Below, piece after piece: positions 498 to 17,384 of a stretch of 17,384 bases of DNA (position 1 is the first letter of the stretch; the number at the start of each line of letters is the position of its first letter). Under the pieces are notes generated by a model, which saw only the letters and a list, made by a program, of their open reading frames with translations, ran no database searches and was not told the DNA's origin. Both the position numbers and the translations under genes were made by a program. The DNA is from a virus (taxonomy: Duplodnaviria > Heunggongvirae > Uroviricota > Caudoviricetes): the IMG/VR virus record IMGVR_UViG_2675903433_000036, positions 1-17,384 of that record; one strand, given 5' to 3'.

Positions 498-518
498 AGC
501 CCCTCCGGAGAGGGGCTG
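498..518 (-). terminator. hairpin with weak U-tract on the minus strand, convergent with the 458-487 hairpin
   Basis: GCCCCTC / GAGGGGC stem around a CGGA loop; on the minus strand it is followed by TTTCTTAT. Could end read-through from the tRNA-like element. Confidence 0.25.
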
Positions 519-829: not shown

Positions 830-863
830 GGGAGCAGAATAATAACGGTCCGTAATTAATTCC

Positions 864-892
864 GCAATAAAAAACCCGCTCAATGGCGGGTT
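864..892 (-). terminator. Rho-independent terminator downstream of the Q-like gene (tR'-like by position)
   Basis: Minus-strand sequence ACCCGCCATTGAGCGGGT hairpin followed by TTTTTTATT, about 85 nt after the stop at 976. Confidence 0.5.
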
Positions 893-975
893 CTGGTAAA
901 GTTCATGCGCTTGGTTCGCCTCGCGATACAGCTTTGCGAAGCGTACCGGAATTGAAGCAGTTTATGCGTAAAAAA

Positions 976-2404: not shown

Positions 2405-2460
2405 TGCTATCTCCAATGGCGCTGTAGGTTGCCAGTTGTTCAGGCTGGCTTACGAATTAT

Positions 2461-2637
2461 AACTCATTCCCGAACCACCTTGAAACCGAGCCTTTCCAGG
2501 TATTCAATGAATGCCTCGATAGATAAAATCACATGATCATCAGGAATTAACGTTGTGTAGATAACGTCTCCATTCTCAACGCGCACAGCATAGAGGCCAT
2601 TTTCACTAAAAATTTCACGCAATTCTTCGATTTTCAT
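2461..2637 (-). CDS. small hypothetical protein (58 aa)
   Basis: ATG at 2637..2635 with SD GGAAGGA upstream; MKIEELREIFSENGLYAVRVENGDVIYTTLIPDDHVILSIEAFIEYLERLGFKVVRE, stop TGA. Not in the ORF track. Confidence 0.4.
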
Positions 2638-2794
2638 CAACAGAATCCTTCCAGATAAATAGCACTCCCCTGTTCGGGGTCCATCCCTCTTCTCCCTGCG
2701 CGCTAATTAAGTGAATCGATTCTAGTCAGGCATACCAGCTAATCAACAAACCCTGGTCGGTTAAATAGAAGGATTGGCTAAAATTTACCCCCAT

Positions 2795-2822
2795 TAAAAT
2801 AAAAAACCCGCCGAAGCGGGTT
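2795..2822 (-). terminator. Rho-independent terminator of the hok transcript
   Basis: CCCGC-CGAA-GCGGG hairpin (2807-2820); on the minus strand it is followed by TTTTTTATTTTA. Lies about 70 nt downstream of the hok stop. Confidence 0.55.
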
Positions 2823-2890
2823 AAGTGCGGGTGCGTTGAGGATGCCTGACACATCAGAGGTGGCGAGGGATTTCTCCCCCGCCTGGTCTC

Positions 2891-3046
2891 TTACTCCTCA
2901 GGTTCGTAAGCTGTGAAGACAGCGACCTCCGTCTGGCCGGTTCGGATTCGTACCTCGCAGAGGTCTTTCCTCGTTACCAGTGCCGTCACTATGACGGTTA
3001 AACAGATGACGATCAGGGCGACTAACATCGCCTTTTGCTGCTTCAT
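2891..3046 (-). CDS. hokD: Hok/Gef-family membrane toxin (type I toxin), HokD/RelF-like
   Basis: 51 aa, MKQQKAMLVALIVICLTVIVTALVTRKDLCEVRIRTGQTEVAVFTAYEPEE: single TM helix plus the conserved C-terminal hok motif, nearly identical to my recollection of RelF/HokD. SD AAGGAG 9 nt upstream of ATG at 3046. The 70-aa ORF-track version is an in-frame upstream extension. Confidence 0.85.
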   Translation of the reverse strand: MKQQKAMLVALIVICLTVIVTALVTRKDLCEVRIRTGQTEVAVFTAYEPEE

Positions 3047-3225
3047 AGCCTGCTTCTCCTTGCCTTTCGGCACGTAAGAGGCTAACCTACGTTTGTGAAG
3101 CATAGATTGGGCCTCAGATTAATGTTAAGCGTCTTGCAGGACGCGTAATGTTAACTGGGGCTTTTCTCTATCTGCCTTTTGGTGTTCATGCCTGAGGCAG
3201 ATAGCCTCAAGCACCCATTATGATT

Positions 3226-4347
3226 TTAACCAAAGTCTTTGTATCTATAAAGAGGCACAATATTACTCGATATATCATCATGTGTGCGCCTTATTCCAAA
3301 CATTTTGGAAACAAAGCGTTCCCTCACTCCCGACATATCCAGTATCTGCTTCCAAGAAGATATATCCAGCAATTCAACTGCACAGGAAAGTAAGCGAGGT
3401 TTTTCCTCAGGGATTAACTCATCCCCCATCTCTCCTTTAATCGTCCCTCTTTTATTTAGATGGATAAATCCCGTTCTCATTTGTTGTGGCGTAATCAGCC
3501 CCAAAACCGTAGCACGATAAATACACATGCGAAGACTGATTTTCCATCGTTCTTTGAAATTAATTAGTGCATTCCAGTCAAGATGCGATCCTCGCATTTT
3601 AGGAAATTCATTAACGAACGAAACTCTAGGTACAAGGAATGCGCTCGAAAAATAATCCGCATGATGTTCTGTAATTTTATCCCCTGTTATAATCCCTTCA
3701 TGCAAAACAAGATGCCCCAGTTCATGACCGAGATCTGAGCGAAATCGACACACACTCTTTTTCGCGGAATTTCTAATTATCAATGGGCGTTTACTATTAA
3801 TAGTAAACGCATCAATACGATCATCCACGCCAGATACATGAGCAACAACAACCCCAATACTTTCCACGAAATTAACCATTGAAGATATCGGTCCCAGCCC
3901 CAAACCCCAATACCTTCTACAGGCCTCGGCAATTCTTTCAATATCTTCATCGGAGTTCAAAGGTAATCCGGACGTATCAGGAAAGTTCAATTCTGGAAGA
4001 ACTATTTCTGTTTCCAAACACTTTACAAACTGCTCCAAAATTTCAGCTCGAGCCAGAATACTATTAGTTAAGGACTGCGTCCTTGATCTCTTGCTTCTGA
4101 AATGGCAGTTCTCGCTGTCTAATGGTGATTTCCTTCCAGTGAAGAAAAACGACTCTTTAACATCCAGATAATCTGCAAGAGCTGTCAACATCTGAGATGA
4201 AGGGGGATAACCACGCTCTAACTTGTTTATAAATTGCCGAGTCACCCCCAAAGCAGTAGCAAGCTCTTCGCCCGTAACCCCTTTAGCCTGACGAGCTAAT
4301 TTTAAGCAGTCACCACGATAATTACCTATAGAATCAAATAGTTCCAT
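3226..4347 (-). CDS. HTH_XRE DNA-binding domain fused to ImmA/IrrE-type (COG2856, HExxH) zinc metallopeptidase, with a C-terminal domain of unknown function
   Basis: N-terminal XRE helix-turn-helix (LKLARQAKGVTGEELATALGVTRQFINKLERG), a central HELGH zinc-binding motif (SDLGHELGHLVLHEG) and about 150 further residues. Start is uncertain (ATG 4347 or 4374, GTG 4383), none with a strong SD; the frame overlaps the upstream gene by 14-50 nt. GC about 37-40 percent against about 48-52 percent in the flanks. Confidence 0.75.
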   Translation of the reverse strand: MELFDSIGNYRGDCLKLARQAKGVTGEELATALGVTRQFINKLERGYPPSSQMLTALADYLDVKESFFFTGRKSPLDSENCHFRSKRSRTQSLTNSILARAEILEQFVKCLETEIVLPELNFPDTSGLPLNSDEDIERIAEACRRYWGLGLGPISSMVNFVESIGVVVAHVSGVDDRIDAFTINSKRPLIIRNSAKKSVCRFRSDLGHELGHLVLHEGIITGDKITEHHADYFSSAFLVPRVSFVNEFPKMRGSHLDWNALINFKERWKISLRMCIYRATVLGLITPQQMRTGFIHLNKRGTIKGEMGDELIPEEKPRLLSCAVELLDISSWKQILDMSGVRERFVSKMFGIRRTHDDISSNIVPLYRYKDFG

Positions 4348-4984
4348 ATTTATCACTATCTGCTTTTTTCGCATTCTTAACACGCCGCTGCAAATTCAGC
4401 GGTGGTGTTTCCACGGCCTCTGGCAATACGTCAGTATTAGCTGCTTGTACTGGAGCATGGACTTTAGACACCAATTCGTATCTACTCACTACATTATTTG
4501 ATGAATCAAAACCTATCAGGGCTAAAAGCCACGTTGGAGGTTCAATATCTTCATCTTTTTTATTTGCAGATGGTAATTTTTCAGCCAGAACACGCCATGT
4601 AACATCATGTTCAAAATTAACATCATCTTCAAAAAGAGATAACTGACGACACTCAACATCATTTTTACATAAGCGATGTTTCTTTTTTGGTGAATCCAGT
4701 TTATCGGTCACAAACTGTAACGGCACCCTGTTCAGGGTAAACACAAAATTCAGAGGTGTTGAAAGAATCGCCACTCCTTTGAGTTTTTTATGATTTTTTA
4801 CAAGAAAGTTTTTTATCCATCCATAGGCCCTACATCCATTAATCCAGTTATCATCATACTCATGGCGATGGAACCATAATTCGCCAAGTACGTTAGCAAA
4901 TTGCTGAAGAAGATTGATAACAGATTTTTCATCCAAACAAGGATTGATTTCAAAACACGGTTGGAGATTCTGTTCAGACGGCAT
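4334..4984 (-). CDS. hypothetical protein (216 aa), first gene of the AT-rich two-gene cassette
   Basis: ATG at 4984..4982 with SD AGGGA about 7 nt upstream (MPSEQNLQPCFEINPCLDEK...); the ORF-track start at 5026 is a TTG. No motif recognised. AT-rich like its partner. Confidence 0.65.
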   Translation of the reverse strand: MPSEQNLQPCFEINPCLDEKSVINLLQQFANVLGELWFHRHEYDDNWINGCRAYGWIKNFLVKNHKKLKGVAILSTPLNFVFTLNRVPLQFVTDKLDSPKKKHRLCKNDVECRQLSLFEDDVNFEHDVTWRVLAEKLPSANKKDEDIEPPTWLLALIGFDSSNNVVSRYELVSKVHAPVQAANTDVLPEAVETPPLNLQRRVKNAKKADSDKYGTI

Positions 4985-5138
4985 AAGGTATCCCTCTCTC
5001 TTAAAACTCCGCTCATCTTTACGCAAAATTTTATTTTTGTAAACCTAATCTTTAGGGGATTTCACGAATTCGTCAACCAGTCGAACAAACTTTAACCACA
5101 ATACATATTTATCTACATTGATATGTGTATCGCTAACA

Positions 5139-5369
5139 CTATTGTGGGCATTCAGCTAGTATTACCAAGCCTTCAGGTGCGCGAAGTTGTTCCGCACAGT
5201 GCAGCAGCGCATCAGTCGCTTCCTTAAGCGTCACAGTGTCGCCATCACCCAGTCCTGCAATTTTTGCGTGCCTGACAAACGCCGCGCAAAGGTCGTTAAA
5301 CGCCCCTGCCCGCACATCCGCCAGGAAAGCGTTGGCAGCAGCCAAATCCTGGTAGTCAATCCCGCTCAC
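5139..5369 (-). CDS. hypothetical small phage protein (76 aa)
   Basis: GTG start at 5369 with a strong SD (AGGAGGTG) and a GTGA overlap with the upstream stop; MSGIDYQDLAAANAFLADVRAG... Confidence 0.5.
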   Translation of the reverse strand: MSGIDYQDLAAANAFLADVRAGAFNDLCAAFVRHAKIAGLGDGDTVTLKEATDALLHCAEQLRAPEGLVILAECPQ

Positions 5370-5788
5370 TGTGCCACCTCCTGAAAATTACCCTGATAAA
5401 ACGCCAGTGCGCGCTGCATAACTTCGCTCTTCCGGCACTCGCTACAGATTATGTTCTGACGCCTGTCGTAGCGGCGTATTTCTCCGTCTGGTAATGACCA
5501 GATAAGGTCCGGATCATCCACAGATGTTTTCTTCAGATTTGCCCTTGAGAGTTTTTTGCGGGCGTTTTGCCAGTCCTTACGCGCCTGTTCAGACGGGAAT
5601 AACCCGTAACCAGAGTTGTATACATCGCCACTGGCAACCAGCTCTCTGGCGAGAACACTCATCAGATATCTTGTCGCACCTGTTTTCTCTTCCAGTTGCC
5701 GTAACGTCTCGCGGCCGCTCAGACGTACAAGTTCAACAACCTGCCCTTTAATTTTTTCCCGCTCTTCTGGTGTAAATACTTTTGCCAT
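5366..5788 (-). CDS. hypothetical phage protein (140 aa)
   Basis: ATG at 5788..5786 with SD GGAGG 7 nt upstream (MAKVFTPEEREKIKGQ...). The ORF-track start at 5803 is a TTG abutting the upstream stop. Confidence 0.55.
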   Translation of the reverse strand: MAKVFTPEEREKIKGQVVELVRLSGRETLRQLEEKTGATRYLMSVLARELVASGDVYNSGYGLFPSEQARKDWQNARKKLSRANLKKTSVDDPDLIWSLPDGEIRRYDRRQNIICSECRKSEVMQRALAFYQGNFQEVAQ

Positions 5789-5803
5789 GGGCGCCTCCGG
5801 CAA

Positions 5804-6574
5804 TCACTTTTCCGATGCAACACGGCGGGAAAAATCAGTAATCTGTCGAACAATATCCCGATGCTTGTTCAGCTCCCGCAGCGCGGCGCAGACACGCTCC
5901 CACTTCTGGACATGATTTTTCGCCCGACGCAGTTCACGGTTTGCCATATGCAGCGATGACAAAATCAAATCATCAGATCGCGTTGCAGTAAACGATGGCA
6001 GCGACTGCACAATGTCCGCCACAGTTTCTGTTTTAATATCTTCCTGTGTTGCAGCCTCCTGTACTGGTAACGCAACACATGCAGGCTGAGGAAAGGCTTT
6101 ACCATCAGTTTCCGCTACCGATGCTGCTTTCGGCTCTGCTGGTAAATTATCGCCCGGTATGCAGTAACGAAATTTACCGTTCTGATTAACGCGTGCCAGC
6201 CGCCCCGTTGCGGTTACCACCGCCAGCGTGGAAGCAACCTTGCGAGTACTGACGCCGAACTTACCCGCCAGTTCCTCACACGTTTTAGCACCATCCTGAC
6301 CGATAAACTCAACCATCATGTCTGCGGTAACTTTTGGAGCGACCTCTTCGGTTACCACATCCGGCGCTTCAGGTTGTAGTGCCTGCCCTTCGGTTACCCC
6401 GGCTTCACCTTCGACAGCCAGAAACCAGGTGTGACCCGTTTTATCAACAACGCCATTTTTTTTGAGTTCCCACAGTTCGTTAAGAACTTCTTCACGGCTG
6501 ATATCAAGCCGCGCCGCCAGTTCAACAGAATTGGCTTTTCCCATCGCTTTCAGTGCATGCAATACAGTTTCCAT
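5804..6574 (-). CDS. hypothetical phage protein with two winged-helix-like segments (DUF1627-like, tentative)
   Basis: 256 aa with SD GAGGT upstream. Two similar segments ([28 protein letters not shown] and [27 protein letters not shown]) and a basic, possibly coiled C-terminus. Confidence 0.55.
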
Positions 6575-6599
6575 CGAAAATTTACCTCGTCAAAAATTC

Positions 6600-7340
6600 T
6601 CACATACCCTGACGTCCAACGTTTGACCGCCAGCTCTCCCAGTTAAAATTCACCCAACGCCCGCCGTTCATGGTCATGCGATCCATAATCCTCTCGCCGA
6701 GCAATGTTTTCATGGCCTCATAGCTCAGGTTTGTCAGCATCCCCACGCTGCGCATCGACGCTGTCCGGCGATCAACAATCTGGTGCAGCACCACCTGCTC
6801 GTTTTTTGTCTCGCGCTGAATGCCAATTTCATCAAGAACCAGCAGATCCACTTGGCACAGTTCCCGCAAAAATTTTTCGCCTGATTGCCCGTCGTCATAG
6901 CTGGCGTGTAGAGCACTCATGACATCAGCCACGGTAACCACAATCACTGTCTGGCCATCTTTTAGCAGGCGATTCCCGATAGCCGCCGCCAGATGGTTTT
7001 TTCCGGTACCAGGTTTTCCGCTGAACGCAAAATTTGTATACCCGGTCATCAGTTCATCGGCGATGGATTTCGCCTGGCTTAACGCGTATCGCTGGCCGTC
7101 GTTCTGCACCTGGTAATTCGCAAACGAGCATTTACGGTGCAACGGCTGGATGCCAGAGCGATTCAGAATTTTTTCCACCCGCAACTGACGATTCAGGCGG
7201 TTGATCTCCTCGCAACGTTTCTGTCCTTCAGCAAGTTGCCACTCACGCCACTCCGCAACCGTTCTGAATGGGGCGGTTACATGTGGTGGGGTCAGTCTGC
7301 GGATACGCTCCAGAACGCCGCCTGTCGCAATATTTTTCAT
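6600..7340 (-). CDS. ydaV: DnaC/IstB-like AAA+ ATPase, replicative helicase loader (P-like role)
   Basis: Walker A GKPGTGKNHLAAAIG and Walker B LLVLDEIG; 246 aa, directly downstream of the O-like gene. Symbol from recalled Rac synteny and length. Confidence 0.8.
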   Translation of the reverse strand: MKNIATGGVLERIRRLTPPHVTAPFRTVAEWREWQLAEGQKRCEEINRLNRQLRVEKILNRSGIQPLHRKCSFANYQVQNDGQRYALSQAKSIADELMTGYTNFAFSGKPGTGKNHLAAAIGNRLLKDGQTVIVVTVADVMSALHASYDDGQSGEKFLRELCQVDLLVLDEIGIQRETKNEQVVLHQIVDRRTASMRSVGMLTNLSYEAMKTLLGERIMDRMTMNGGRWVNFNWESWRSNVGRQGM

Positions 7341-7346
7341 GGTCTG

Positions 7347-8204
7347 TTACCCCCTGAAGCCTGGCGGGATCGCACTATCCGGTAGCGAAACGGTGTTAAC
7401 CTGTCGGAGTAACGTCTCAGGTCGAACACCTTTCGGCGCGAACAGGCCCTGGTATTCATTGGCGATACTGTGTCGAATCACCTGCTCGGGTGTAAAACCC
7501 TGCTGGCGGAATTTTTCCAGCTCCCGTATCGCCCCGTTAGCGCCCTGCTCCGTTCGAATCGGTTTTCGCAATGCCTGGCGAAATTCAACCCACTCACGCC
7601 AAAGCGAGACAGAAATCCAGTTCGGCAAAGCAATATCCAGAGGGTCAAACTTTTTGACACCTCGATTCCCCCGGGGGGGATTTAGGGGGGGATCTGTTTT
7701 TAGATCTTTATCTGTATCTTTATTAGTTGCCTTTGTGTTGACATCATGTTCAAACACCACTTCAACATCTGTTTGAACACCTGTTAAATTTCTCTCTTGT
7801 TTTTTTTGAACATCTGCTTCCTTTCTGCTTCTTCTGGCCTGAACAGATGCTTTTCCTGCGGCTGATTTTTTGGTTAATTTTTCCCTGACTGATGCCAGAT
7901 CTTCCTCAATCCGAAGATGCACCCATTCCTCGCCGTTATCGCAAAAAAACTCCTGCAAGGATGGTTCAACATCAGCCCATCGCTCGTTAGTCAGACGGGC
8001 AATTTTTGCCAGTCTGTTTTTAGGTATTGGCTTTCCTGTTTGCCAGTAATTGAACATCAGCAACAAATACGCACCATGCTCCTCTGCTGACAAATGCATG
8101 GTGTCAGCCAAGTAATCAGCTATGTACAGTTGCATGTATGGTAATGCGGCCATAATTGCCCCGTATGATGCTGCCCGGTGGCTTAGAATAAGCACAAACA
8201 GCAT
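7347..8204 (-). CDS. ydaU: replication initiator, O-like (YdaU/DUF1376-type), containing the candidate origin
   Basis: 285-aa ORF. The start is uncertain: ATG 8204 has no SD, alternatives at 8153 and 8135. A Lys/Glu-rich central linker is encoded by an AT-rich repeat-laden segment. Symbol from recalled Rac length and synteny. Confidence 0.65.
   Translation of the reverse strand: MLFVLILSHRAASYGAIMAALPYMQLYIADYLADTMHLSAEEHGAYLLLMFNYWQTGKPIPKNRLAKIARLTNERWADVEPSLQEFFCDNGEEWVHLRIEEDLASVREKLTKKSAAGKASVQARRSRKEADVQKKQERNLTGVQTDVEVVFEHDVNTKATNKDTDKDLKTDPPLNPPRGNRGVKKFDPLDIALPNWISVSLWREWVEFRQALRKPIRTEQGANGAIRELEKFRQQGFTPEQVIRHSIANEYQGLFAPKGVRPETLLRQVNTVSLPDSAIPPGFRG
7667..7852. repeat. iteron-like direct and inverted repeats plus C5/G7/G7 homopolymer tracts inside the O-like gene; candidate replication origin
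   Basis: CCCCCGGGGGGG at 7668-7679 and GGGGGGG at 7685-7691; palindrome GATCTgtttttAGATC at 7691-7706; ATCTTTAT twice; ATGTTCAAACACC and CTGTTTGAACACC; GAACATCTGCTT and GAACAGATGCTT. Confidence 0.45.
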
Positions 8205-8216
8205 GGAAACTTTTGC

Positions 8217-8639
8217 TTAATGAACAATGACAGAATCTTCGGAAGACCCGCCGCCGCTGAAATGCGCTTTCCGGTAAACGGCCTGGACTGCATCATCATG
8301 CGCATCAATTGCCGTACTCAACGCTTCCTGCGCCGCCAGTAATGCACGGCGTTCCAGGGTATCGAAGATGCAGAGTCGGTGACGCAGCTCGCGCGGAATA
8401 ATTGCCAGAACCGCAGGGATCAGTTTCTGAATTTTTTCCCTTTGCGCTTTCGTTTCACCTTTCAACCAACGGTGATAGATATTCTGCTGATTGTTCCAGT
8501 CCTTGCCTGGTACCAGGGGCAATTCGCCGCCCCCCTGGCGCAGATATTCTTCAGTAATTGCGTTAGCGACCCACGCCTGCCCTTTTTCGGCTGCCAGGGC
8601 TAACAACACTGATTCGATGTGCTCATGCCTGATTTTCAT
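8217..8639 (-). CDS. ydaT: YdaT-like protein (reported toxin partner of YdaS in Rac-type prophages); occupies the cII position
   Basis: 140 aa, SD AGGAG 8 nt upstream of ATG 8639; overlaps the Cro-like gene by 17 nt. Symbol from recalled length and synteny. Confidence 0.6.
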   Translation of the reverse strand: MKIRHEHIESVLLALAAEKGQAWVANAITEEYLRQGGGELPLVPGKDWNNQQNIYHRWLKGETKAQREKIQKLIPAVLAIIPRELRHRLCIFDTLERRALLAAQEALSTAIDAHDDAVQAVYRKAHFSGGGSSEDSVIVH

Positions 8640-8898
8640 GAATCAACTCCTGTGCATTTGGTGTGTTAGCCTTACATCCAACAGGTAAACCATCGGTCGG
8701 ATTCGGGTAGATATCAGGCCGGAGTTCATGAGGTGTAACCTCGAAATTCGTTACTTCAGCAACACGTAATGCTTTTTCAGGGCTGAATCTTTCATAGCCC
8801 CCCAGCACTCGACTTACATGCACCTGAGATAAACCCGTTAGCTTCCCAAACTGTAACTGGGTGATATGTTTCTCTTTTAAATAGTCTCTTAAGTTCAT
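8623..8898 (-). CDS. ydaS: Cro-like HTH regulator (YdaS-type)
   Basis: MNLRDYLKEKHITQLQFGKLTGLSQVHVSRVLGG is an HTH. ATG at 8898 with SD GAAGG; first gene of the rightward operon, divergent from the repressor. The ORF-track TTG start at 8904 is less likely. Confidence 0.65.
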   Translation of the reverse strand: MNLRDYLKEKHITQLQFGKLTGLSQVHVSRVLGGYERFSPEKALRVAEVTNFEVTPHELRPDIYPNPTDGLPVGCKANTPNAQELIHENQA

Positions 8899-8928
8899 AG
8901 CCAACCTTCTACGTTATGCCTCGAACAA

Positions 8929-8957
8929 ATATTAGCTCCACTAATTTTAAAGATCAA
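8929..8957 (-). promoter_or_regulatory. pR-like sigma70 promoter for the Cro-like operon
   Basis: Minus strand reads TTGATC (-35), a 17-nt spacer, then TAATAT (-10); predicted TSS near 8921, about 24 nt before the ATG at 8898. Confidence 0.5.
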
Positions 8958-8971
8958 CAGTCAGACTATCT

Positions 8972-8999
8972 TTGATAATATTGGTAAAACAAATAAACT
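8972..8999 (+). promoter_or_regulatory. possible pRM-like promoter giving a leaderless or near-leaderless repressor mRNA
   Basis: TTGATA (8972-8977), 16-nt spacer, TAAACT (8994-8999), ATG at 9006 with no SD, as for lambda cI from pRM. Confidence 0.3.
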
Positions 9000-9005
9000 C
9001 TATGT

Positions 9006-9467
9006 ATGAAAAAAACACGCGAAGTGATTGCAACTCCAGAAGCGAGCAAGAATTTAAAAGCCGCATGGAATGCAAGAAAAAAAGAGCTGAAGCTGACTCA
9101 AGAGCTGGCGGCTGAGTTGTTGGGATTCGAATCTCAAGGCACCGTTAGCCAGTATCTGAACGGCAAGATACCGGTAAATACCGACGCTGCGCTAAAATTT
9201 GCGGCTCTGTTAAAGGTAAAACCAGAGGACATTCGAGAAGACCTTAAAGACTTAATGAATTATGTAAGATCATCAGATACTTATGATGATAGCTTTTCAG
9301 GCAAAGGATGGAGGCTGGTCAATGAAGAACAGGCAGAGTTACTTAACCTCTTCGAGATTCTACCTGCGTCAGAAAAAGCCAAACTCCTTAACCAGCTACG
9401 TGGACTAAACAAGCTCTATGAGGAAGCCTTCGAGAACATGCTGGCACTAAAGAAACGTAACCAGTAG
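9006..9467 (+). CDS. racR: prophage repressor, XRE-family HTH, non-LexA-like (RacR-like)
   Basis: 153 aa; HTH LTQELAAELLGFESQGTVSQYLNGK; no peptidase S24 domain. Divergent from the Cro-like gene and followed by a terminator. Symbol is by analogy. Confidence 0.6.
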   Translation: MKKTREVIATPEASKNLKAAWNARKKELKLTQELAAELLGFESQGTVSQYLNGKIPVNTDAALKFAALLKVKPEDIREDLKDLMNYVRSSDTYDDSFSGKGWRLVNEEQAELLNLFEILPASEKAKLLNQLRGLNKLYEEAFENMLALKKRNQ

Positions 9468-9493
9468 CCACCACTCACTACCCTATCCACAAC

Positions 9494-9523
9494 AAAAAAA
9501 CCGACGTCTTAGTCGGTTTTTTT
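9494..9523 (+). terminator. Rho-independent terminator after the repressor gene (A-tract / hairpin / T-tract, potentially bidirectional)
   Basis: AAAAAAA-CCGAC-GTCTTA-GTCGG-TTTTTTT. Confidence 0.6.
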
Positions 9524-9548
9524 GTGCCATAACTTCTGCAAATCAGCT

Positions 9549-9649
9549 GTGTAACTAATATTTTTCCCTTGAAAAAACATTTACATAGTTACTAAATCAA
9601 AAGCATCATACTCCATACTGTTGACTTAAAATATCCGTGTTACTAATAT
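9549..9649 (+). promoter_or_regulatory. strong pL-like promoter with three copies of a GT(T/A)ACTAAT operator-like motif
   Basis: -35 TTGACT (9621-9626), 17-nt spacer, -10 TAATAT (9644-9649). Motif copies: GTGTAACTAATAT (9549-9561), GTTACTAAAT (9588-9597), GTGTTACTAATAT (9637-9649, overlapping the -10). Confidence 0.55.
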
Positions 9650-9720
9650 CCTCATCAAGAACAGCACGGCGCTGTAGGTTTTAGTTCCGCCACCCGGCGT
9701 TAAGGGGAAATGAGGTCAAC

Positions 9721-9873
9721 ATGGATACTATCGATCTTGGCAACAACGAATCTCTGGTATGTGGCGTGTTTCCCAATCAGGACGGCACATTCACCGCCAT
9801 GACGTATACCAAAAGCAAATCGTTTAAAACCGAAGCTGGCGCACGTCGCTGGCTTGCCAAAAATACCAGCTAA
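9721..9873 (+). CDS. small early-left protein (50 aa; YdaF/YdaG-like by position)
   Basis: SD GAGGT 6 nt upstream of ATG 9721; MDTIDLGNNESLVCGVFPNQDGTFTAMTYTKSKSFKTEAGARRWLAKNTS. Not in the ORF track. Confidence 0.55.
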   Translation: MDTIDLGNNESLVCGVFPNQDGTFTAMTYTKSKSFKTEAGARRWLAKNTS

Positions 9874-10070
9874 ACAATTTATTGGATTAATTCAATATTC
9901 TTGCTGTAGGGGTATAGCCGAGGCCACCAAAGCCCGGAGGTGGTGAAATAAAACCGGGCACAACACGAAGGCGCATTTCCGATATCCATAAAGAGTCGGT
10001 CTTGTCTGTTAAATTTAAATGGTGGGAGTGCGCCTCCGGTTGTAAATAACGACATTGCTGTGTGTAGTCT

Positions 10071-10115
10071 TGGCGGCATCAGTTCTACTCCGTGGCTGCC
10101 CTGCCGCCCCTTTTT
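10071..10115 (+). terminator. terminator-like long-loop hairpin (tL1-like) within a 400-bp structured leader
   Basis: GGCGGCA (10071-10077) pairs with TGCCGCC (10103-10109), followed by CCTTTTTAAAG. Confidence 0.3.
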
Positions 10116-10578
10116 AAAGTGAATTTTGTGATGCGGTGAATGCGGCTGAGCGCACGCGGCACAGTTAAAAGCATCAGTGTTATGGGTGGATTATCCGGCG
10201 TTAATTGTTAACTGGTTAACGTCACCTGGAGGCACCAGGCACCGCATCAACAAAGTTCACTTCAGTGATGAAAGGTGAGAGAAAATGATGGATGTAGCTA
10301 TTGAAAACCAGAACGGGTGGAATTATAGTGCACCTGCACCTCATAAAACGGGTGCCGGGATTTGCACCCCGATGATCACTAGAGCGCATAACCGCGCCAA
10401 AGCGTTTTTTTTATGCGTAAAGCGCAGCCACATTCAGATTATGGTGGGGCGTATGGGGCCGTTTTCGGGCGGGCCGGATTCTCTAGTGACCGGTAGTGCA
10501 AACCCTGTACGTCTCACCACCCATGAGATTTGCACCTCCGGTGGTGAGTTTACCAACTTATCACTAGAGGCTGCCATC

Positions 10579-11133
10579 ATGGCTACTATCCCTACCCTTT
10601 CTCACCCTGACGTAACCATCGAAAATGGTCGTGCTGTCACTACGTCTGTTGCAGTTGCAGAGTTTTTCCGCAAGCTGCATAAAAACGTCATTCAAAAAAT
10701 TGAAGCTCTGGAATGTTCCTCAGAATTCACTGAGCTTAATTTTAAGCCAAGTGAATACACCGACTCAACCGGGCGCAAACTCCCAATGTACCAAATCACC
10801 AAAAACGGCTTCGTTTTCCTGGTGATGGGTTTCACTGGCAAAAAAGCCGCTGCATTCAAAGAGGCCTACATCGCTGAGTTCGACCGCATGGAAGCAGAGC
10901 TACGCCAGAATAATACCACTCCCACAAACAAAATCATTCCGGGCGATGGGCGCACTCTGGTTGTTCGCTTCGACAAATTCGGCAACGTCGAATTCACTGA
11001 AACCGTTCCTGATGGCGCTCTCGTCTGTACCCTGGACACTTTCCGCCTTTATCTGGAGAAACAGGGCTGGACTCTTGTAAACCGAAGCGCAATTAAAAAT
11101 ATGACCGTCGAGCAGTTGCTGAGTATTAAATAG
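10579..11133 (+). CDS. Rha-family phage regulatory protein (Phage_pRha domain)
   Basis: Matches my recollection of the Rha domain: AVTTSVAVAEFFRKLHKNVIQKIEAL...ELNFKPSEYTDSTGRKLPMYQITKNGFVFLVMGFTGKKAAAFKEAYIAEFDRMEA. Internal ATG 10579 with SD AGAGG is preferred; the ORF-track start at 10285 adds about 98 compositionally odd, repeat-containing residues. Confidence 0.65.
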   Translation: MATIPTLSHPDVTIENGRAVTTSVAVAEFFRKLHKNVIQKIEALECSSEFTELNFKPSEYTDSTGRKLPMYQITKNGFVFLVMGFTGKKAAAFKEAYIAEFDRMEAELRQNNTTPTNKIIPGDGRTLVVRFDKFGNVEFTETVPDGALVCTLDTFRLYLEKQGWTLVNRSAIKNMTVEQLLSIK

Positions 11134-11179
11134 TTTTCTGGAATTTTCTTAATACGAGAAATTTATTAAGGAGATAATT

Positions 11180-11401
11180 ATGATTGCTCATCACTTCGGA
11201 ACTGATGAAATACCACGTCAGTGTGTGACTCCTGGCGATTATGTTCTTCATGAAGGTCGGACATATATCGCCTCGGCAAACAATATTAAAAAGCGAAAAC
11301 TTTATATTCGTAGCCTGACTACAAAAACATGCATTTCTGACTGCATGATTAAAGTCTTCCTCGGCCGTGATGGTTTACCTGTAAAGGCGGAGTCATGGTA
11401 A
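11180..11401 (+). CDS. kilR: KilR-like small protein (host-killing / cell-division inhibitor of Rac-type prophages)
   Basis: 73 aa with strong SD AAGGAG. Symbol from recalled Rac length and position. Confidence 0.5.
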
Positions 11402-11571
11402 TGACTAAGAAAATGAAATGTGCTTATCACCTTTGCAATAAAGAAATTGAAGAAAGCAAAATCATTACAAGACCACTTCATTTCATGCGTGGAGTTATAC
11501 CAACGACGGAAATGAAAAAATATTGTAGTGAAATCTGTGCCGAAAAAGACCAGATGGCACACGAACTTTAA
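11401..11571 (+). CDS. ydaE: small zinc-finger-like protein (YdaE-like)
   Basis: 56 aa, ATG overlapping the upstream TAA (TAATG); [56 protein letters not shown] with a CxxHxC...CxxxC pattern. Not in the ORF track. Confidence 0.5.
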   Translation: MTKKMKCAYHLCNKEIEESKIITRPLHFMRGVIPTTEMKKYCSEICAEKDQMAHEL

Positions 11572-11651
11572 TTAACTGACTATTCGAAACTGAATTTATG
11601 CCAGCAATGGCAGGGGTTCGCTCAACCTTAAAATAGTTATGAGGTTTATCA

Positions 11652-13682
11652 ATGAGTACTGATAAAGAAAATTACGCTCTGTATTGCGACGCGAAAAATG
11701 ATAAAACCAGAAAACGCCTCGGCATCAAAGGCGGCTTTTTCTGGACAGAGGCAAAAAAACTTTCTGTTGCGGTTTTACGCTGCATTGCTGCAATGGACGA
11801 TGCCGGATTTGACGAAGAGGATTTTAAAAAACCCATCCGCGTCCATTTACCCGTTGTGAATGACCTTCCACCGGAAGGTGTGTTTGATACTGAATTCTGC
11901 AACCGATACGAAAAAGGCGGAGAAGATGGTATCACAATGATACTTATCGCGCCCTCTCCCTCCGTGCAGGAGAAACCAGCCAGTACTGACAATACCAACG
12001 TCAACGGCGAAGACATGACGGAGATTGAGGAGAATATGCTCCTGCCGGTTTCTGGTCAGGAGCTGCCCATTCGCTGGCTTGCGCAACACGGCAGCGAAAA
12101 ACCAGTAACGCACGTTGCACGGGAAGAACTTCAGGCATTACATATAGCACGGGCGGAAGAACTGCCGGCTGTTACTGCCCTGGCCATTTCTCACAAAACA
12201 AAGCTGCTCGACCCGCTGGAGATTCGCGACCTTCACAAACTGGTACGCGACACTGACAAAGTTTTCCCTAATCCCGGTAATTCAGACCTGGGACTGATAA
12301 CTGCTTTTTTCGAGGCATACCTGGACGCTGACTACACTGATCGGGGTCTGCTGACAAAAGAGTGGATGAAAGGAAATCGTGTTTCGCGTATCACCCGTAC
12401 GGCTTCCGGTGCAAATGCCGGTGGCGGGAACAAAACCGATCGCAATCCGAATTTAGTACACACCTTCGATACGCTGGATGTGGAGATTGCAGCAGCCACA
12501 CTTCTGATGGATTTTAATATTTATGAAATTCCGGGCAGCGTTTATCGTCGCGCAAAAGAAATCGTCCTGAAAAGAGAAAGTCCGTTCAAAGAATGGTCCG
12601 CAGCACTTCGCGCAACCCCGGGTATTCTGGACTATTCCCGCGCCGCTATTTTTGCACTTATCCGGAGCGCTCACCCTGAGTTTTATCACTACCCGGGACG
12701 CCTTCAGGGGTATATCAACGCCTACTTAACGGAGACTGATCACGAGAACCCCAGCAAGGAAACTCTCACTGCTGCACGACATACACCGGAAAAAGATATC
12801 CTGGAAGAGGTTAACCGCGAACTGGCTGCTAAGCAGGAAACAGAAGAAGAAAATGATGAAGAAAAACCGCAACCATCTTGCGCAATGGCAGATGAACAGG
12901 CAACGGCTGAAACAGTGGAACCGGATGCAACTGAACATCATCAGGACACGCAGCCGCTGGATGCTCAGTCACAGGTAAATTCTGTTGATGCGAAATATCA
13001 GAAACTGCGGGCAGAACTCCATGAAGCCCGGAAAACCATTCCGCCCAAAAATCCTGTCGATGCCGACAAATTGCTGACTGCCTCTCGCGGAGAATTTGTT
13101 GAAGGGATTAGCGACCCGAATGATCCGAAATGGGTTAAGGGAATTGAAACCCGAGATTCTGTGAACCAGAACCAGCCCGAATCGGAACAAAACAACCAGA
13201 AAGCGGAACAAAACAGCCCAAATGCACAGAAAAACGAGCCAGAAACGAAACAATCTGAACCAGTAGCGCAACAGGAACCGGAAAAAGTCTGTGCCGCCTG
13301 CGGTCAGAGCGGCGGCGGCAACTGCCCTGATTGTGGCGCGGTGATGGGCGACACCACGTATCTGGAAACCTTTAATGAAGAAAATCAGAATGAATATCAG
13401 GAAAAAGGTCTGGAGGAAATGGAAGGTGCTGAACATCCGCACAAGGAGAACGATGGCAGCGATCCGCATCGCGATTGCAGTGATGAAACTGGCGAAGCAG
13501 CAGCTTCATCATTAGAAAAACTCGACTGGAAAAGACAAGTGGTGATTGCAGCGGTTTACGGTTTATGTGCAAATCCTGCGGGTATAGCCTCAGCGCCATT
13601 AATTCCGGGTATTGCAATGATGATTGCAAACAAACTTGAAAATTTTGGGGTGACGGATGATGAGTACATGCCCAATTTTTGA
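11652..13682 (+). CDS. large acidic protein of unknown function upstream of the Red genes (zinc-ribbon motif; possibly related to the RecE N-terminal region)
   Basis: 676 aa with SD GAGGT. Long Asp/Glu/Gln-rich low-complexity stretches, a [16 protein letters not shown] zinc ribbon and a hydrophobic C-terminal segment ([33 protein letters not shown]). Sits where racC-recE lie in Rac. No nuclease motif recognised. Confidence 0.7.
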
Positions 13683-13956
13683 TCGCATTGAAGAGCAGGC
13701 ATGGTCACGCCACTACCAGCAAATCGTTTGCGAAGAAAAAGAAACGGCGCTGGCGGACGACCTGGAAAAAGGTCTGCCCCAGCACCTGTTTGAATCGCTC
13801 TGCATCGACCATTTGCAACGCCACGGTGCCAGCAAACAGGCAATCAGTCGCGCATTTGATGACGATGTTGAATTTCAGGAACGTGTGGCGGAGCACATCC
13901 GGTACATGGTTGAAACCATTGCTCGTCACCAGGTTGATATTGATTCAGAGGTATAA
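13657..13956 (+). CDS. gam: Gam, host RecBCD nuclease inhibitor (lambda GamS-like)
   Basis: 99 aa, near-identical over most of its length to recalled lambda Gam (…RHYQQ…[24 protein letters not shown]…[12 protein letters not shown]…[12 protein letters not shown]…HQVDIDSEV). Confidence 0.9.
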
Positions 13957-13961
13957 AACGA

Positions 13962-14747
13962 ATGAGTACAGCACTTGCAACACTGGCCGGGAAGCTGGCT
14001 GAACGCGTCGGCATGGATTCTGTCGACCCACAGGAACTGATCACCACTCTTCGCCAGACGGCATTTAAAGGTGATGCCAGCGATGCGCAGTTCATCGCAT
14101 TGCTGATCGTCGCCAACCAGTACGGCCTTAATCCGTGGACGAAAGAAATTTACGCCTTCCCTGACAAGCAGAACGGCATCGTTCCGGTGGTGGGCGTTGA
14201 TGGCTGGTCCCGCATCATAAATGAAAACCAGCAGTTTGATGGCATGGACTTTGAGCAGGACAATGAATCATGTACATGCCGGATTTACCGCAAGGACCGT
14301 AATCATCCGATCTGCGTTACCGAGTGGATGGATGAGTGCCGTCGCGAACCATTCAAAACCCGAGAAGGCAAAGAAATCATCGGACCATGGCAGTCGCATC
14401 CCAAACGGATGTTACGGCATAAAGCCATGATTCAGTGTGCCCGTCTGGCCTTCGGATTTGCTGGTATCTATGACAAGGATGAAGCCGAGCGCATTGTCGA
14501 AAATACCGCATGCACTGCAGAACATCAGCCGGAACGCGACATCACTCCGGTTAACGATGAAACCATGCAGGAGATTAACACTCTGCTGATCTCCCTGGAT
14601 AAAACATGGGATGACGACTTATTGCCGCTCTGTTCCCAGATATTTCGCCGCGACATTCATGCATTGTCAGAACTGAAACAGGCCGAAGCAGTGAAAGCTC
14701 TTGGATTCCTGAAACAGAAAGCCGCAGAGCAGAAGGTGGCAATATGA
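13962..14747 (+). CDS. bet: Bet (Red-beta) single-strand annealing protein
   Basis: 261 aa, near-identical to recalled lambda Bet ([89 protein letters not shown]...). Confidence 0.92.
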
Positions 14748-15424
14748 CACCGGACATTATCCTGCAGCGTACCGGGATCGACGTGAGAGCTATCGTACAG
14801 GGGGATGATGCGTGGCACAAATTACGGCTCGGCGTCATCACAGCTTCAGAAGTTCACAACGTGATAGCAAAACCCCGCTCCGGAAAGAAATGGCCTGACA
14901 TGAAAATGTCCTACTTCCACACCCTGCTTGCCGAGGTTTGCACCGGTGTGGCTACGGAAGTTAACGCTAAGGCGCTGGCCTGGGGAAAACAGTACGAGAA
15001 CGACGCCAGAACCCTGTTTGAGTTCACTTCCGGCGTGAATGTTACTGAATCCCCGATCATCTATCGTGACGAGACTATGCGCACCGCCTGCTCTCCAGAT
15101 GGTTTATGCAATGACGGCAACGGCCTTGAGCTGAAATGCCCGTTCACCTCCCGGGATTTCATGAAGTTCCGGCTCGGTGGTTTCGAGGCCATAAAGTCGG
15201 CTTACATGGCCCAGGTGCAGTACAGCATGTGGGTGACGCAAAAAGATGCCTGGTACTTTGCCAACTATGACCCGCGTATGAAGCGTGAAGGCCTGCATTA
15301 TGTCGTGGTTGAGCGGGATGAAAAGTACATGGCGAGTTTTGACGAGATGGTGCCAGAATTCATCGAAAAAATGGACGAGGCACTGGCTGAAATTGGTTTT
15401 GCATTTGGGGAACAATGGAAATGA
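14744..15424 (+). CDS. exo: Exo (Red-alpha) 5'-3' dsDNA exonuclease
   Basis: 226 aa, near-identical to recalled lambda Exo ([16 protein letters not shown]...[36 protein letters not shown]...); ATGA overlap with bet. Confidence 0.92.
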
Positions 15425-15651
15425 GCGCAGCCATAAAGCTCACAGGAGAAAAACCAGTGCTATACACAAAAGTCAAACCATGTCCGTTTTGTGGTTGTCC
15501 ATCAGTAACGGTGAAAGCCATTTCAGGATATTACCGCGCAAAGTGTAACGGATGCGAATCCCGAACTGGCTATAGTGGAAGTGAAAAAGAAGCACTCGAA
15601 AGATGGAATAAACGAACTACTGGAAATAATAATGGAGGTGTTCATGTATAA
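15415..15651 (+). CDS. ralR: Lar/RalR-like restriction-alleviation protein (zinc-ribbon, CPFCG motif)
   Basis: [47 protein letters not shown] matches my recollection of the Lar family. Start at 15415 or 15421, the latter overlapping the exo stop. Confidence 0.5.
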
Positions 15652-15853
15652 AATTACTGTCACTATTGAAAAGGAAGGTGGCACTCCTACTAACTGGACA
15701 AGATATTCAAAATCTAAATTAACGAAATCAGAATGCGAAAAAATGCTCTCTGGGAAAAAAGAAGCAGGCGTTTCCAGAGAGCAGAAAGTAAAACTGATAA
15801 ATTTTAATTGCGAGAAACTTCAGTCCTCGAGAATTGCATTGTATTCAAATTAA
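15644..15853 (+). CDS. ydaC: small hypothetical protein (YdaC-like, 69 aa)
   Basis: ATG 15644 preceded by GGAGGTG; [35 protein letters not shown]... AT-rich. The ORF-track 92-aa version begins upstream in the overlap with the Lar-like gene. Confidence 0.45.
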   Translation: MYKITVTIEKEGGTPTNWTRYSKSKLTKSECEKMLSGKKEAGVSREQKVKLINFNCEKLQSSRIALYSN

Positions 15854-15931
15854 AACTTCATAGCTGATTATTAATAATCAACATCGGGCGTCAATTTCAG
15901 TCTAACATTGGCGCCTGCCAGAGGTGATGCG

Positions 15932-16147
15932 ATGGCAAAAGTAATCTTTAATGAAGAGTGGATGGTTGAATACGGCCTGATGCTTCGCACTGGTCTGGGG
16001 GCCAGACAAATTGAAGCATACCGCCAGAACTGTTGGGTGGAGGGCTTCCACTTCAAACGAGTATCTCCTTTAGGTAAGCCAGACAGCAAACGAGGGATTA
16101 TCTGGTACAACTATCCAAAGATAAATCAGTTTATCAAAGACTCATGA
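15932..16147 (+). CDS. xis: excisionase (Xis-like)
   Basis: 71 aa directly upstream of the integrase, with the stop 1 nt before the int ATG; SD GAGGTGA 4-5 nt before ATG 15932. Confidence 0.7.
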
Positions 16148-16148
16148 T

Positions 16149-17384
16149 ATGTCTAAATTACCAACAGGTGTCGAGATTAGAGGTAGATACATTCGCATCT
16201 GGTTCATGTTTCGAGGAAAACGATGTCGGGAAACATTAAAAGGCTGGGAGATTACAAACAGTAATATTAAAAAGGCCGGAAATTTAAGAGCGCTGATAGT
16301 TCATGAAATAAACTCCGGTGAATTTGAGTATTTAAGACGTTTTCCCCAGTCCAGCACTGGGGCAAAAATGGTGACAACGAGAGTCATAAAAACGTTCGGA
16401 GAGCTTTGTGATATCTGGACAAAAATTAAAGAGACAGAGTTAACAACAAACACAATGAAGAAAACAAAATCACAATTAAAAACACTCAGAATAATAATTT
16501 GTGAAAGTACCCCGATATCACATATTCGTTATAGCGATATCTTAAACTACCGGAATGAACTGCTGCATGGAGAAACGCTTTACCTGGATAATCCAAGATC
16601 CAACAAAAAAGGAAGAACCGTGCGCACAGTTGATAACTATATCGCCCTGCTCTGTTCGCTGTTGCGTTTTGCGTATCAGTCGGGATTTATATCAACCAAA
16701 CCATTTGAAGGAGTAAAAAAATTACAGCGAAACAGAATAAAGCCTGATCCGTTATCTAAAACAGAATTCAATGCATTAATGGAAAGTGAAAAAGGACAGA
16801 GCCAGAACTTGTGGAAATTTGCCGTTTACTCAGGACTTCGTCACGGGGAACTGGCAGCTCTGGCGTGGGAGGATGTGGATCTCGAAAAGGGAATAGTGAA
16901 TGTCAGAAGAAACCTGACGATACTTGATATGTTCGGTCCCCCAAAAACAAATGCCGGGATCCGGACAGTAACACTACTGCAGCCTGCTCTTGAAGCACTG
17001 AAGGAGCAATACAAACTGACCGGGCATCATCGCAAAAGCGAAATCACCTTTTACCATCGGGAGTACGGCAGAACCGAAAAGCAAAAACTGCATTTTGTTT
17101 TCATGCCCAGGGTGTGTAACGGAAAACAAAAACCTTATTACTCGGTAAGCAGTTTGGGGGCAAGGTGGAATGCAGCAGTAAAACGTGCTGGTATTCGCCG
17201 TCGTAATCCGTACCATACGCGGCATACTTTTGCCTGCTGGCTGTTGACGGCAGGAGCGAACCCGGCATTTATAGCCAGCCAAATGGGGCATGAAACTGCG
17301 CAGATGGTGTATGAAATTTACGGTATGTGGATTGATGACATGAACGACGAACAGATAGCCATGTTGAATGCGCGGTTATCGTAG
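16149..17384 (+). CDS. int: tyrosine site-specific integrase (phage integrase family)
   Basis: 411 aa; C-terminal catalytic region with R...HxxR...Y spacing (NPYHTRHTFACWLL...GHETAQMVYEIYGMW). AT-rich, terminal position; the stop codon is the last triplet of the window. Confidence 0.9.
   Translation: MSKLPTGVEIRGRYIRIWFMFRGKRCRETLKGWEITNSNIKKAGNLRALIVHEINSGEFEYLRRFPQSSTGAKMVTTRVIKTFGELCDIWTKIKETELTTNTMKKTKSQLKTLRIIICESTPISHIRYSDILNYRNELLHGETLYLDNPRSNKKGRTVRTVDNYIALLCSLLRFAYQSGFISTKPFEGVKKLQRNRIKPDPLSKTEFNALMESEKGQSQNLWKFAVYSGLRHGELAALAWEDVDLEKGIVNVRRNLTILDMFGPPKTNAGIRTVTLLQPALEALKEQYKLTGHHRKSEITFYHREYGRTEKQKLHFVFMPRVCNGKQKPYYSVSSLGARWNAAVKRAGIRRRNPYHTRHTFACWLLTAGANPAFIASQMGHETAQMVYEIYGMWIDDMNDEQIAMLNARLS

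Follow-up and report, generated by a model that had tools for sequence, protein, structure and literature searches.

The stretch of DNA analysed in this study (17,384 nucleotides; positions 1 to 17,384 of the IMG/VR record IMGVR_UViG_2675903433_000036, referred to below as the window) belongs, by gene content and genome matches, to a Rac-like lambdoid prophage of Escherichia coli. Its presumed immunity region (8905–9660) is arranged around a repressor gene (9006..9467, plus strand, 153 amino acids), the product of which carries a lambda-CI-like helix-turn-helix (HTH) N-terminal domain and a DicA/PaaR2-like helical C-terminal domain. The repressor gene diverges from a Cro-like gene of the YdaS family (8623..8898, minus strand, 91 amino acids, ATG at 8898; Pfam YdaS_toxin and HTH_3), which has the Shine-Dalgarno (SD) sequence GAAGG, the reverse complement of 8905–8909. 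Both divergent promoters lie inside the 107-bp intergenic region. This region measures 105–107 bp in all of the 13 relatives read except L014, which is cut by a contig edge. The repressor gene is followed by an intrinsic terminator (9492..9525; 14-bp perfect hairpin, ΔG −19.7 kcal/mol, z = −7.4) that is bidirectional in form, with an A-run before the hairpin and a T-run after it. A third promoter, on the plus strand, lies beyond this terminator.

Comparative loci were collected by a contig-encoding search and a scan of IMG/VR, the latter giving 80 loci; a scan of genome contigs yielded 3 loci. Together with the earlier loci, 55 were found to have a repressor at least 90% identical to that of the window, and these were reduced to 27 distinct haplotypes of the operator region between the divergent genes (OR) and 38 distinct haplotypes of that beyond the terminator (OL).

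The promoters are named after their lambda counterparts. The PR-like promoter was located on the minus strand at 8957–8929 (−35 TTGATC, 8957–8952; 17-nt spacer; −10 TAATAT, 8934–8929; predicted start near 8922). It was left unlisted by a simple promoter scanner because its hexamers agree with the consensus at only 8 of 12 positions, just below threshold. Both hexamers are invariant in the 27 haplotypes, and TTGAT[C/T]-17-TAATAT is kept at PR in 13 listed loci. The positional counterpart of PR in K-12 Rac, PydaST, has been mapped and likewise has the −10 sequence TAATAT (PMC9638921, PMC11879457). The PRM-like promoter reads on the plus strand (8972..8999; −35 TTGATA, 8972–8977; 16-nt spacer; −10 TAAACT, 8994–8999), its predicted start coinciding with the A of the repressor ATG at 9006, and the segment 8972–9008 is virtually invariant in the 27 haplotypes. 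The PL-like promoter (9621..9649, plus strand) consists of TTGACT (9621–9626), 17 nt and TAATAT (9644–9649), with a predicted start near 9656; its −35 hexamer is invariant in the 38 haplotypes, and the flanks 9600–9620 and 9650–9656 are variable. The promoter scan was not significant by itself (4 found against 2.8 expected). This arrangement bears out the initial annotation, which had described a lambdoid immunity region with a well-formed minus-strand promoter and a weaker plus-strand one between the divergent genes, a terminator behind the repressor gene and a near-consensus PL-like promoter beyond that terminator.

The same annotation had proposed that the repressor is translated from a leaderless messenger, since the weaker plus-strand promoter ends shortly before an ATG that lacks an SD sequence. 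In the window, six nucleotides (9000–9005) lie between the PRM −10 hexamer and the ATG, and they contain no SD sequence. For comparison, 95 loci were reduced to 18 distinct sequences upstream of the repressor ATG. The arrangement TAnnnT, 6 nt, ATG was present in 18 of 18, and the six intervening bases were not conserved. No SD-like tetramer was found in 17 of the 18, and in these the TAA or TAG of the −10 hexamer is an in-frame stop codon at −12; L009 is the exception, its in-frame stop being at −6 and a GAGG lying at 1 nt from the ATG. Codons 2–5 of the repressor gene are A-rich (Lys/Arg), like those of lambda cI and paaR2. PaaR2 was found to be leaderless by 5' RACE (rapid amplification of the ends of cDNA), N-terminal sequencing and mass spectrometry (PMC8630535). 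The invariable −10-to-ATG arrangement and the in-frame stop inside the −10 hexamer support a leaderless messenger, of the kind established by experiment for lambda cI and PaaR2, and it is very likely, judged from these comparisons, that the repressor transcript is leaderless or near-leaderless.

A 13-nt motif had been reported to overlap the PL promoter and to recur 88 bp upstream. Both copies were recovered on the plus strand, GTGTTACTAATAT at 9637–9649 over the PL −10 and GTGTAACTAATAT at 9549–9561, and two further matches were found on the minus strand, one at 8929–8941 over the PR −10 and one at 8978–8990 in the PRM spacer. When up to two mismatches were allowed, these four were the only matches in the window, all of them in regulatory DNA, against 0.47 expected; none of 200 shuffles reached four. 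In a scan with a position weight matrix the four sites scored 17–20 bits and the next best 9.5, the matrix having been trained on those same four sites. The motif at PL shows the sequence behaviour of an operator, as had been suggested. The designation as OL-type was too narrow, because the copies over PR and PRM mean that the motif marks OR as well as OL.

The repeats are real, yet the 13-mer appears to be only part of the unit. The PR (minus-strand) and PL (plus-strand) sequences of the window and of relatives with repressors 58–99% identical (from E. albertii, Enterobacter, Salmonella, Hafnia, Serratia and metagenomic contigs) were aligned on their −10 hexamers. The unit of this alignment is 15 bp long (5 + 5 + 5) and ends at the fourth base of the −10 hexamer, and the 13-mer runs from the last base of the left arm through the centre and right arm to the AT of the −10. 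From these sequences, the operator is proposed to be a lambda-sized dyad of 15–17 bp with the pattern ATnnG-N5-CYAAT. OR1 (8931..8945, read on the minus strand, ATTAG-TGGAG-CTAAT) has perfect arms and lies over the PR spacer together with 4 nt of the −10. The OR3-like site (8980..8994, minus strand, ATTTG-TTTTA-CCAAT) takes up the PRM spacer and reaches the −10; 49 bp separate its centre from that of OR1. OL1 (9633..9647, plus strand, ATCCG-TGTTA-CTAAT) covers the PL spacer and 4 nt of the −10. The distal OL site (9545..9559, plus strand, AGCTG-TGTAA-CTAAT) is a weaker copy with a degenerate left arm; it equals OL1 at 12 of 15 positions and is centred 88 bp upstream of the OL1 centre.

The pattern ATnnG-N5-CYAAT gave six strand-hits at five sites in the window; four of these hits, at three sites, lie in the immunity region, OR1 matching on both strands. 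In regulatory DNA, the four strand-hits at three sites compare with 0.02 in local shuffles, an enrichment that is post hoc inasmuch as the pattern was defined after the sites had been seen. Two longer readings, one of 21 bp (10 + 1 + 10) and one of 19 bp (ATTTAGT-N5-ACTAAAT, prompted by an in-between element of phage Rac-SA53), were rejected because they do not fit the other sites, and the 5-5-5 reading was retained. A promoter at the distal copy was likewise rejected (unusable −35 TTCTGC, no extended −10). A shorter copy of the motif had been placed between the two OL copies. The element concerned, GTTACTAAAT (9588..9597, plus strand), is an isolated arm without a left arm at N5 spacing, one of its positions is polymorphic (T/C) in the population, and the spacer in which it sits is that of TTTACA-18-CATCAT, a weak match to a promoter. 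Having a single arm and no partner, it was rejected as a complete operator.

Natural variation is distributed unevenly over the sites. In the arms, 9 of 40 columns are variable, with 11 minor-haplotype counts, as compared with 10 of 20 columns and 62 counts in the N5 centres and 70 of 242 columns and 375 counts in the other non-coding DNA; since the haplotypes are interrelated, these polymorphism counts are descriptive and do not represent independent events. At OR1, variation touches four of the five bases of the centre, and a single one of the 27 haplotypes departs from the others in the arms. OL1 likewise varies at four of its five centre positions; no variant was seen at the A, T and G of its left arm, and its right arm reads CTAAT in every haplotype but one, which has CCAAT, the arm already used by the window at OR3. 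The CCAAT arm is also present at the PL operator of L003, the repressor of which is 99% identical. Fixed arms around a variable centre are the pattern that would be expected of a dyad bound by a dimer with an uncontacted centre.

Across lineages with repressors 58–92% identical, the sites lie at −74/−75, −26 and +596 to +636 from the repressor ATG, and these positions are kept in about eight diverged lineages. The OR1 position (−74/−75) is kept in most of the diverged lineages in which the dyad pattern occurs, L015, L006, L012 and L009 have a site at the OR3 position, 26 nt before the ATG, and the CTAAT(AT) arm of the distal site is kept in L003, L022 and L015, with an equivalent TTAATAT copy in L004. 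AT occupies arm positions 1–2 in every PR and PL spacer examined; promoter spacers have no sequence requirement there. The PL spacer, moreover, copies the PR spacer of its own lineage, at 20 of 21 positions in the Hafnia locus L006 and at 15 of 16 in L018. The PR and PL sites read ATACG CGGAG CTAAT and ATACG CAGAG CTAAT in L018, ATGAA TATAA GTAAT and ATGAA TATAA ATAAT in L006, and ATTAA TATGG TTAAT and ATGAA CATAA TTAAT in L004. The innermost arm pair is G...C in the window, in L018 and in an Stx2a phage, and A...T in L004, L005 and L016.

The repressor itself matched HTH_3 and HTH_31 as its only Pfam families. The profile of its family aligned with Qin DicA (hhalign 94.9%, E = 4.7e-8, 117 columns) and with CP-933P PaaR2 (hhalign 89.6%, E = 1.9e-6), and its C-terminal 40 residues are 38% identical to those of DicA. 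The features of the DicA/PaaR2 type are present, namely an Xre-type HTH and a short helical C-terminal domain with the motif ELLxLFxxLPxxE, and neither an S24 peptidase domain nor an Ala-Gly cleavage module was found in the protein. On these sequence grounds the repressor belongs with DicA and PaaR2. The earlier description of it as RacR-like does not hold: BLASTP against K-12 RacR gave E = 26 and hhalign a probability of 1%, so that RacR homology was ruled out, and no RacR boxes (TTAGGC-N3-GCCTAA) were found in the immunity region, the window containing three matches with three mismatches against 6.3 expected.

The N-terminal domain was matched to that of lambda CI by sequence (PDB search, E = 3e-4), and its AlphaFold (AF2) model superimposes on the lambda N-terminal domain with TM scores of 0.75–0.82 at 29–33% identity. 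The model comprises helices within residues 11–89, a linker, and helices 107–118 and 121–152, which form a C-terminal helical hairpin. The repressor family has an unvarying pair of glutamines, Gln32 and Gln44, aligned with lambda Gln33 and Gln44, and the N-terminus (MKKTRE) forms a basic arm as in the lambda CI type. The base contacts of the repressor are presumed to be those of the published lambda complex (1LMB). Judged from sequence and model, DNA recognition would be of the lambda CI N-terminal domain type, with a five-helix domain on a 5-5-5 operator. In more distant relatives, among them the CI proteins of Stx2a phages, the same N-terminal domain is fused to S24.

The observed sequence anatomy, motif enrichment, positional conservation, polymorphism pattern and homologies are probably best explained if 8905–9660 is the immunity switch of a Rac-SA53-type lambdoid prophage in which repressor dimers act on lambda-sized dyads. 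What this model predicts is binding itself, the sequence in which the sites are occupied, where transcription starts, cooperativity and how induction proceeds; it would operate as follows: A dimer of the 153-amino-acid repressor would bind the ATnnG-N5-CYAAT operators, and occupancy of OR1 and OL1 would exclude RNA polymerase from the −10 and spacer of PR and PL. The block at PR would silence the Cro/YdaT/replication arm, and that at PL the DUF1391 gene, DicF, the Rha/Ash gene with isrK and C4, the open reading frames (ORFs) at the kilR and ydaE positions and recET; the toxic early genes would thereby be kept silent. OR3 in the PRM spacer would provide autorepression at high repressor concentration. 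From its place 88 bp away, the distal OL site probably contributes contacts for cooperativity or looping, made by the helical C-terminal domain, and the 0.7-kb distance between OR and OL might allow looped complexes, both by analogy with PaaR2 octamers. The PRM transcript would start at or beside the A of the ATG and be translated without a leader. YdaS made from PR would probably use the same operators in the opposite order, with YdaT as the CII analogue. Since the repressor lacks an S24 autocleavage domain, induction by an antirepressor is expected in place of RecA-stimulated cleavage. Repression by DicA is lifted by the antirepressor Rem without the involvement of RecA (PMC10448788).

Several observations weigh against this model or against the dyad as its unit. 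The dyad pattern was derived from the same sites on which it is tested, and the interrelatedness of the haplotypes limits the polymorphism counts, as stated above. At PR and PL, some of the conservation of the right arm is due to promoter constraint, since the arm runs into the −10 hexamer there. Left arms are poor at OL1 (ATCCG) and especially at the distal site (AGCTG), and the innermost arm positions are asymmetric in L006, L012 and L009. No OR2-like site was detectable between OR1 and OR3, an interval that is polymorphic, and hence lambda-style activation of PRM, that is, positive autoregulation, is not supported. On the side of induction, LexA boxes were no commoner than chance and were dropped as an SOS input; no antirepressor-inducing signal was found either. 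Lastly, all four 13-mers are oriented along PR or PL transcription, which an asymmetric site would explain as well. The unit might then be the 13-mer or the CTAATAT arm, recognised by oriented monomers or by tandem units joined through C-terminal oligomers, with no fixed-spacing dyad. Such a unit would account for the much better conservation of the right arm and for the want of a convincing left arm at the distal site and in the in-between element; it would also have parallels in PaaR2, which forms octamers on sites that mix direct and inverted repeats (PMC8630535), and in the RacR sites, which have been interpreted as monomer boxes (PMC9638921). We nevertheless consider it unlikely, because both arms of OR1 are perfect, because free variation in the five intervening bases goes with an unvarying A, T and G in the left arms, and because the innermost positions change together (G...C or A...T) in most of the tabulated PR and PL sites. 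The geometry, moreover, is that of the lambda operators, and the N-terminal domain is lambda-CI-like.

Two further explanations dispense with the repressor as the main ligand. If the motif were merely promoter DNA, a TAATAT −10 in AT-rich context with no specific recognition by a repressor, it would be natural that the −10 hexamer makes up 6 of the 13 motif positions at PR and PL, that the unrelated PydaST of K-12 Rac has a TAATAT −10 too, and that the promoter scan is not significant. The copies at 8978–8990 and 9549–9561 are, however, not the −10 of any credible promoter, and promoter constraint leaves unexplained the invariant A, T and G in the spacer, 10–14 nt upstream of the −10, the copying of the spacer between PR and PL within a lineage (L006, L018) and the hypervariable centre between two fixed arms; this explanation is therefore very unlikely. 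The assignment of the sites primarily to the Cro-like YdaS or to YdaT, and not to the 153-amino-acid repressor, is given the least credence of all. The Cro-like gene accompanies the repressor gene in every locus, including that of the Stx2a phage, so that covariation cannot separate the two proteins, and footprints of Rac YdaT have been located inside the racR-ydaS intergenic region (PMC11879457). Even so, the known YdaT box (TTGATT-N6-AATCAA) is different and is found elsewhere in the window (8629–8646), and a maintenance repressor needs sites over both PL and PR. Since in lambda, CP-933P and Qin the Cro protein acts at the operators of the repressor, binding of the Cro-like protein to the same sites is in any case compatible with the repressor-operated switch.

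In its design the switch is of the classic lambda type; it is an uncharacterised example and no new kind of system. Gene order and orientation, divergent promoters, operators over PR, PRM and PL, the (predicted) leaderless repressor messenger, the fold of the repressor N-terminal domain (29–33% identity) and the 5-5-5 operator geometry are shared with lambda. The arms of the lambda operators are ATCAC-N5-GTGAT, equal in geometry to ATnnG-N5-CYAAT, and the OR1–OR3 centre distance in lambda is ~47 bp, as compared with 49 bp here. Unlike lambda, the region has no detectable OR2-like site, its OL sites lie 88 bp apart and are not adjacent, the repressor bears a short helical C-terminal domain in place of the S24 autocleavage domain, the CII analogue is of the YdaT family, and OL and OR are separated by only ~0.7 kb.

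The PaaR2-YdaS-YdaT region of CP-933P (PMC8630535) resembles that of the window in its short homologous repressor, which is leaderless by experiment and has A-rich codons 2–5, in its homologous YdaS and YdaT, and in a PL-type promoter with operators and a conserved PL leader motif. It differs in that the N-terminal domains of the two repressors have no similarity detectable by BLASTP and in that no paaA2-parE2 toxin-antitoxin pair follows the repressor gene in the window. The PaaR2 repeats are four equally spaced 18-bp GTTTAGTAA palindromes (TTAG-N6-CTAA); palindromes of this type are absent here save for a weak match with three mismatches at 9581–9596, below chance expectation. DicA of Qin (DicA/DicC and dicBp; PMC3441716, PMC10448788) is the closest characterised homologue of the whole repressor, and it is controlled by an antirepressor and not by RecA. 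In Qin, too, the operon downstream has a DUF1391 gene in first place and includes DicF (a dicB gene was not seen in the window), and at dicBp the operator-like ATGTTAGTCATGGCTAATCTT covers the spacer and the −10 exactly as in the window. By contrast, the N-terminal recognition sequences differ, and the DicA operator Oc is TTGTTAGT-N4-ACTAACAA, no such site being present in the window.

K-12 Rac (PMC9638921, PMC5700373) is of the same prophage type and has the same gene order and positions (recET, kilR, ydaF-like, repressor, ydaS, ydaT, ydaU, ydaV); there, too, a repressor silences toxic neighbours, the −10 of PydaST is TAATAT and a YdaT box lies over the ydaT start. The repressors, however, are non-homologous, and RacR site O3 overlaps the coding sequence of racR itself. 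In sequence, the operator proposed here differs from all three known sets (RacR, PaaR2, DicA). A TTAG/CTAA core is common to all of these, with centres of 5 to 7 bp.

Operators of the same dyad type were met in the Stx2a phage Lys12581Vzw (NC_049917; L023 2353–2461). The N-terminal domain of its CI is 50% identical to that of the window repressor, with a nearly identical recognition helix (TQGAVSQ against SQGTVSQ), and dyads are found over PR (ATCAG-GTAAG-CTAAT) and at PRM (ATTTG-TGTTG-CTAAT). Its CI differs in possessing an S24 (LexA-type) autocleavage domain and an SD sequence (GGAGG), and is thus not leaderless. This suggests a domain swap, in which the DNA-binding domain of an SOS-cleavable CI of the Stx2a clade was combined with a non-cleavable C-terminal domain of the antirepressor-responsive DicA/PaaR2 type. 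As the same type of operator lies over PR and PRM in both phage groups, cross-repression could occur. That the swap and the shared operators lead to repression of Stx2a phages, or to their altered induction, by a resident prophage that is itself insensitive to SOS is a doubtful but conceivable consequence; if true, a resident Rac-SA53-type prophage (often cryptic) could affect an incoming or co-resident Stx2a phage, and the reverse would also be possible. The operator model offers testable targets, a prediction of cross-immunity with Stx2a phages and another example of a leaderless repressor; the general understanding of such switches is unchanged by it. The position of the repressor gene upstream of DicF, a KilR-sized ORF and RecET implies, by analogy with RacR and DicA, that the repressor is probably conditionally essential.

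The immunity type is not confined to the window. The segment 8600–9900 is 99% identical to a prophage of the O103:H2 strain 129, and at least 80% of it is held by 180 of 5,426 complete E. coli genomes (~3%). In phage Rac-SA53 (KU052037), the repressor is 100% identical and annotated as dicA; a literature search on Rac-SA53 found no study of the regulation of this phage. Relatives of the immunity type also occur in Salmonella, Enterobacter, Hafnia and Serratia.

The Cro-like YdaS protein is 28% identical to YdaS of CP-933P (E = 4e-10) and was matched to the Cro structures 8c7k and 8co2 in the PDB. On its side of the repressor gene follow a YdaT-family gene encoding the CII analogue (8217..8639, minus strand; Pfam YdaT_toxin, E = 1.3e-10; 29% identity to CP-933P YdaT, E = 8e-14) and then genes for a DUF1376 (ydaU-like) protein and an IstB/DnaA-like ATPase (ydaV in Rac-SA53). 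Read from the sequence, a YdaT-box-like inverted repeat, TTGATT-CATGAA-AATCAG (8629..8646, minus strand), overlies the ydaT start codon. Of its 12 arm positions, at least 11 agree with the boxes at which YdaT has been footprinted, ATGATTCATGAAAATCAA in K-12 Rac (PMC11879457) and TTGATT-N6-AATCAA in CP-933P (PMC9986795). The back-to-back −35 boxes of PR and PRM (8953–8976) form ATCAA-N14-TTGAT, with arms like YdaT half-sites, and could be an intergenic YdaT target as reported for K-12 Rac.

On the opposite side, the PL leader (9656..9720, plus strand) is invariant at 9660–9705 in the 38 haplotypes, although variation is present in its flanks and many loci have another gene downstream. The 3' part of the leader, GTTCCGCCACCCGGCGTTAAGGGGA, is common to the leaders of K-12 Rac, Qin dicBp and CP-933P PL. 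No Rfam family matched the leader, and its predicted folding was not significant; it may act as an element of the nut or put kind or in translation. The first gene of the PL operon encodes a DUF1391 (YdaF/YdfA-like) protein (9721..9873, plus strand; Pfam DUF1391, E = 3.5e-29). A dyad-like sequence, ATTTA TTGGA TTAAT, was noted just past its stop codon (9877–9891, plus strand), and in the PL operons of relatives better, two-armed dyads are found at corresponding points, ATTAG-AAAAA-TTAAT in Rac-SA53 (L022 3971–3985) and a perfect ATTAG-CAAAG-CTAAT in L018 (3674–3688).

Further along the PL operon, after the DUF1391 gene, lies a homologue of the DicF small RNA (10059–10109, plus strand; Rfam 54.7 bits, gathering score 48). 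A terminator-like hairpin was seen at 10092–10107, after DicF, and a below-threshold match to STnc100 at 10099–10268 (41.8 bits against 47). The Rha/Ash gene follows as a mechanically called ORF of 282 amino acids with Ash and Rha Pfam domains (10285–11133, plus strand), the true coding start of which may be further downstream; Rfam matches to isrK (10336–10412) and C4 antisense RNA (10437–10524) fall inside its 5' part. The combination resembles the P1 immI or the Gifsy IsrK-type antirepressor module and is a candidate inducer for the short repressor. Next, ORFs of 73 and 58 amino acids occupy the kilR and ydaE positions of related loci, and they are followed by RecE, RecT, a YqaJ-domain protein, Lar with RalA and an integrase. 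The RalA antitoxin RNA (15650–15828, minus strand; Rfam 219.6 bits) adjoins the Lar/RalR-like ORF (15415–15651). Further Rfam matches in the window, all on the minus strand, were a sok-type antitoxin RNA (3041–3216), STnc100 (487–677) and a tRNA-like element (764–823, 37.3 bits).

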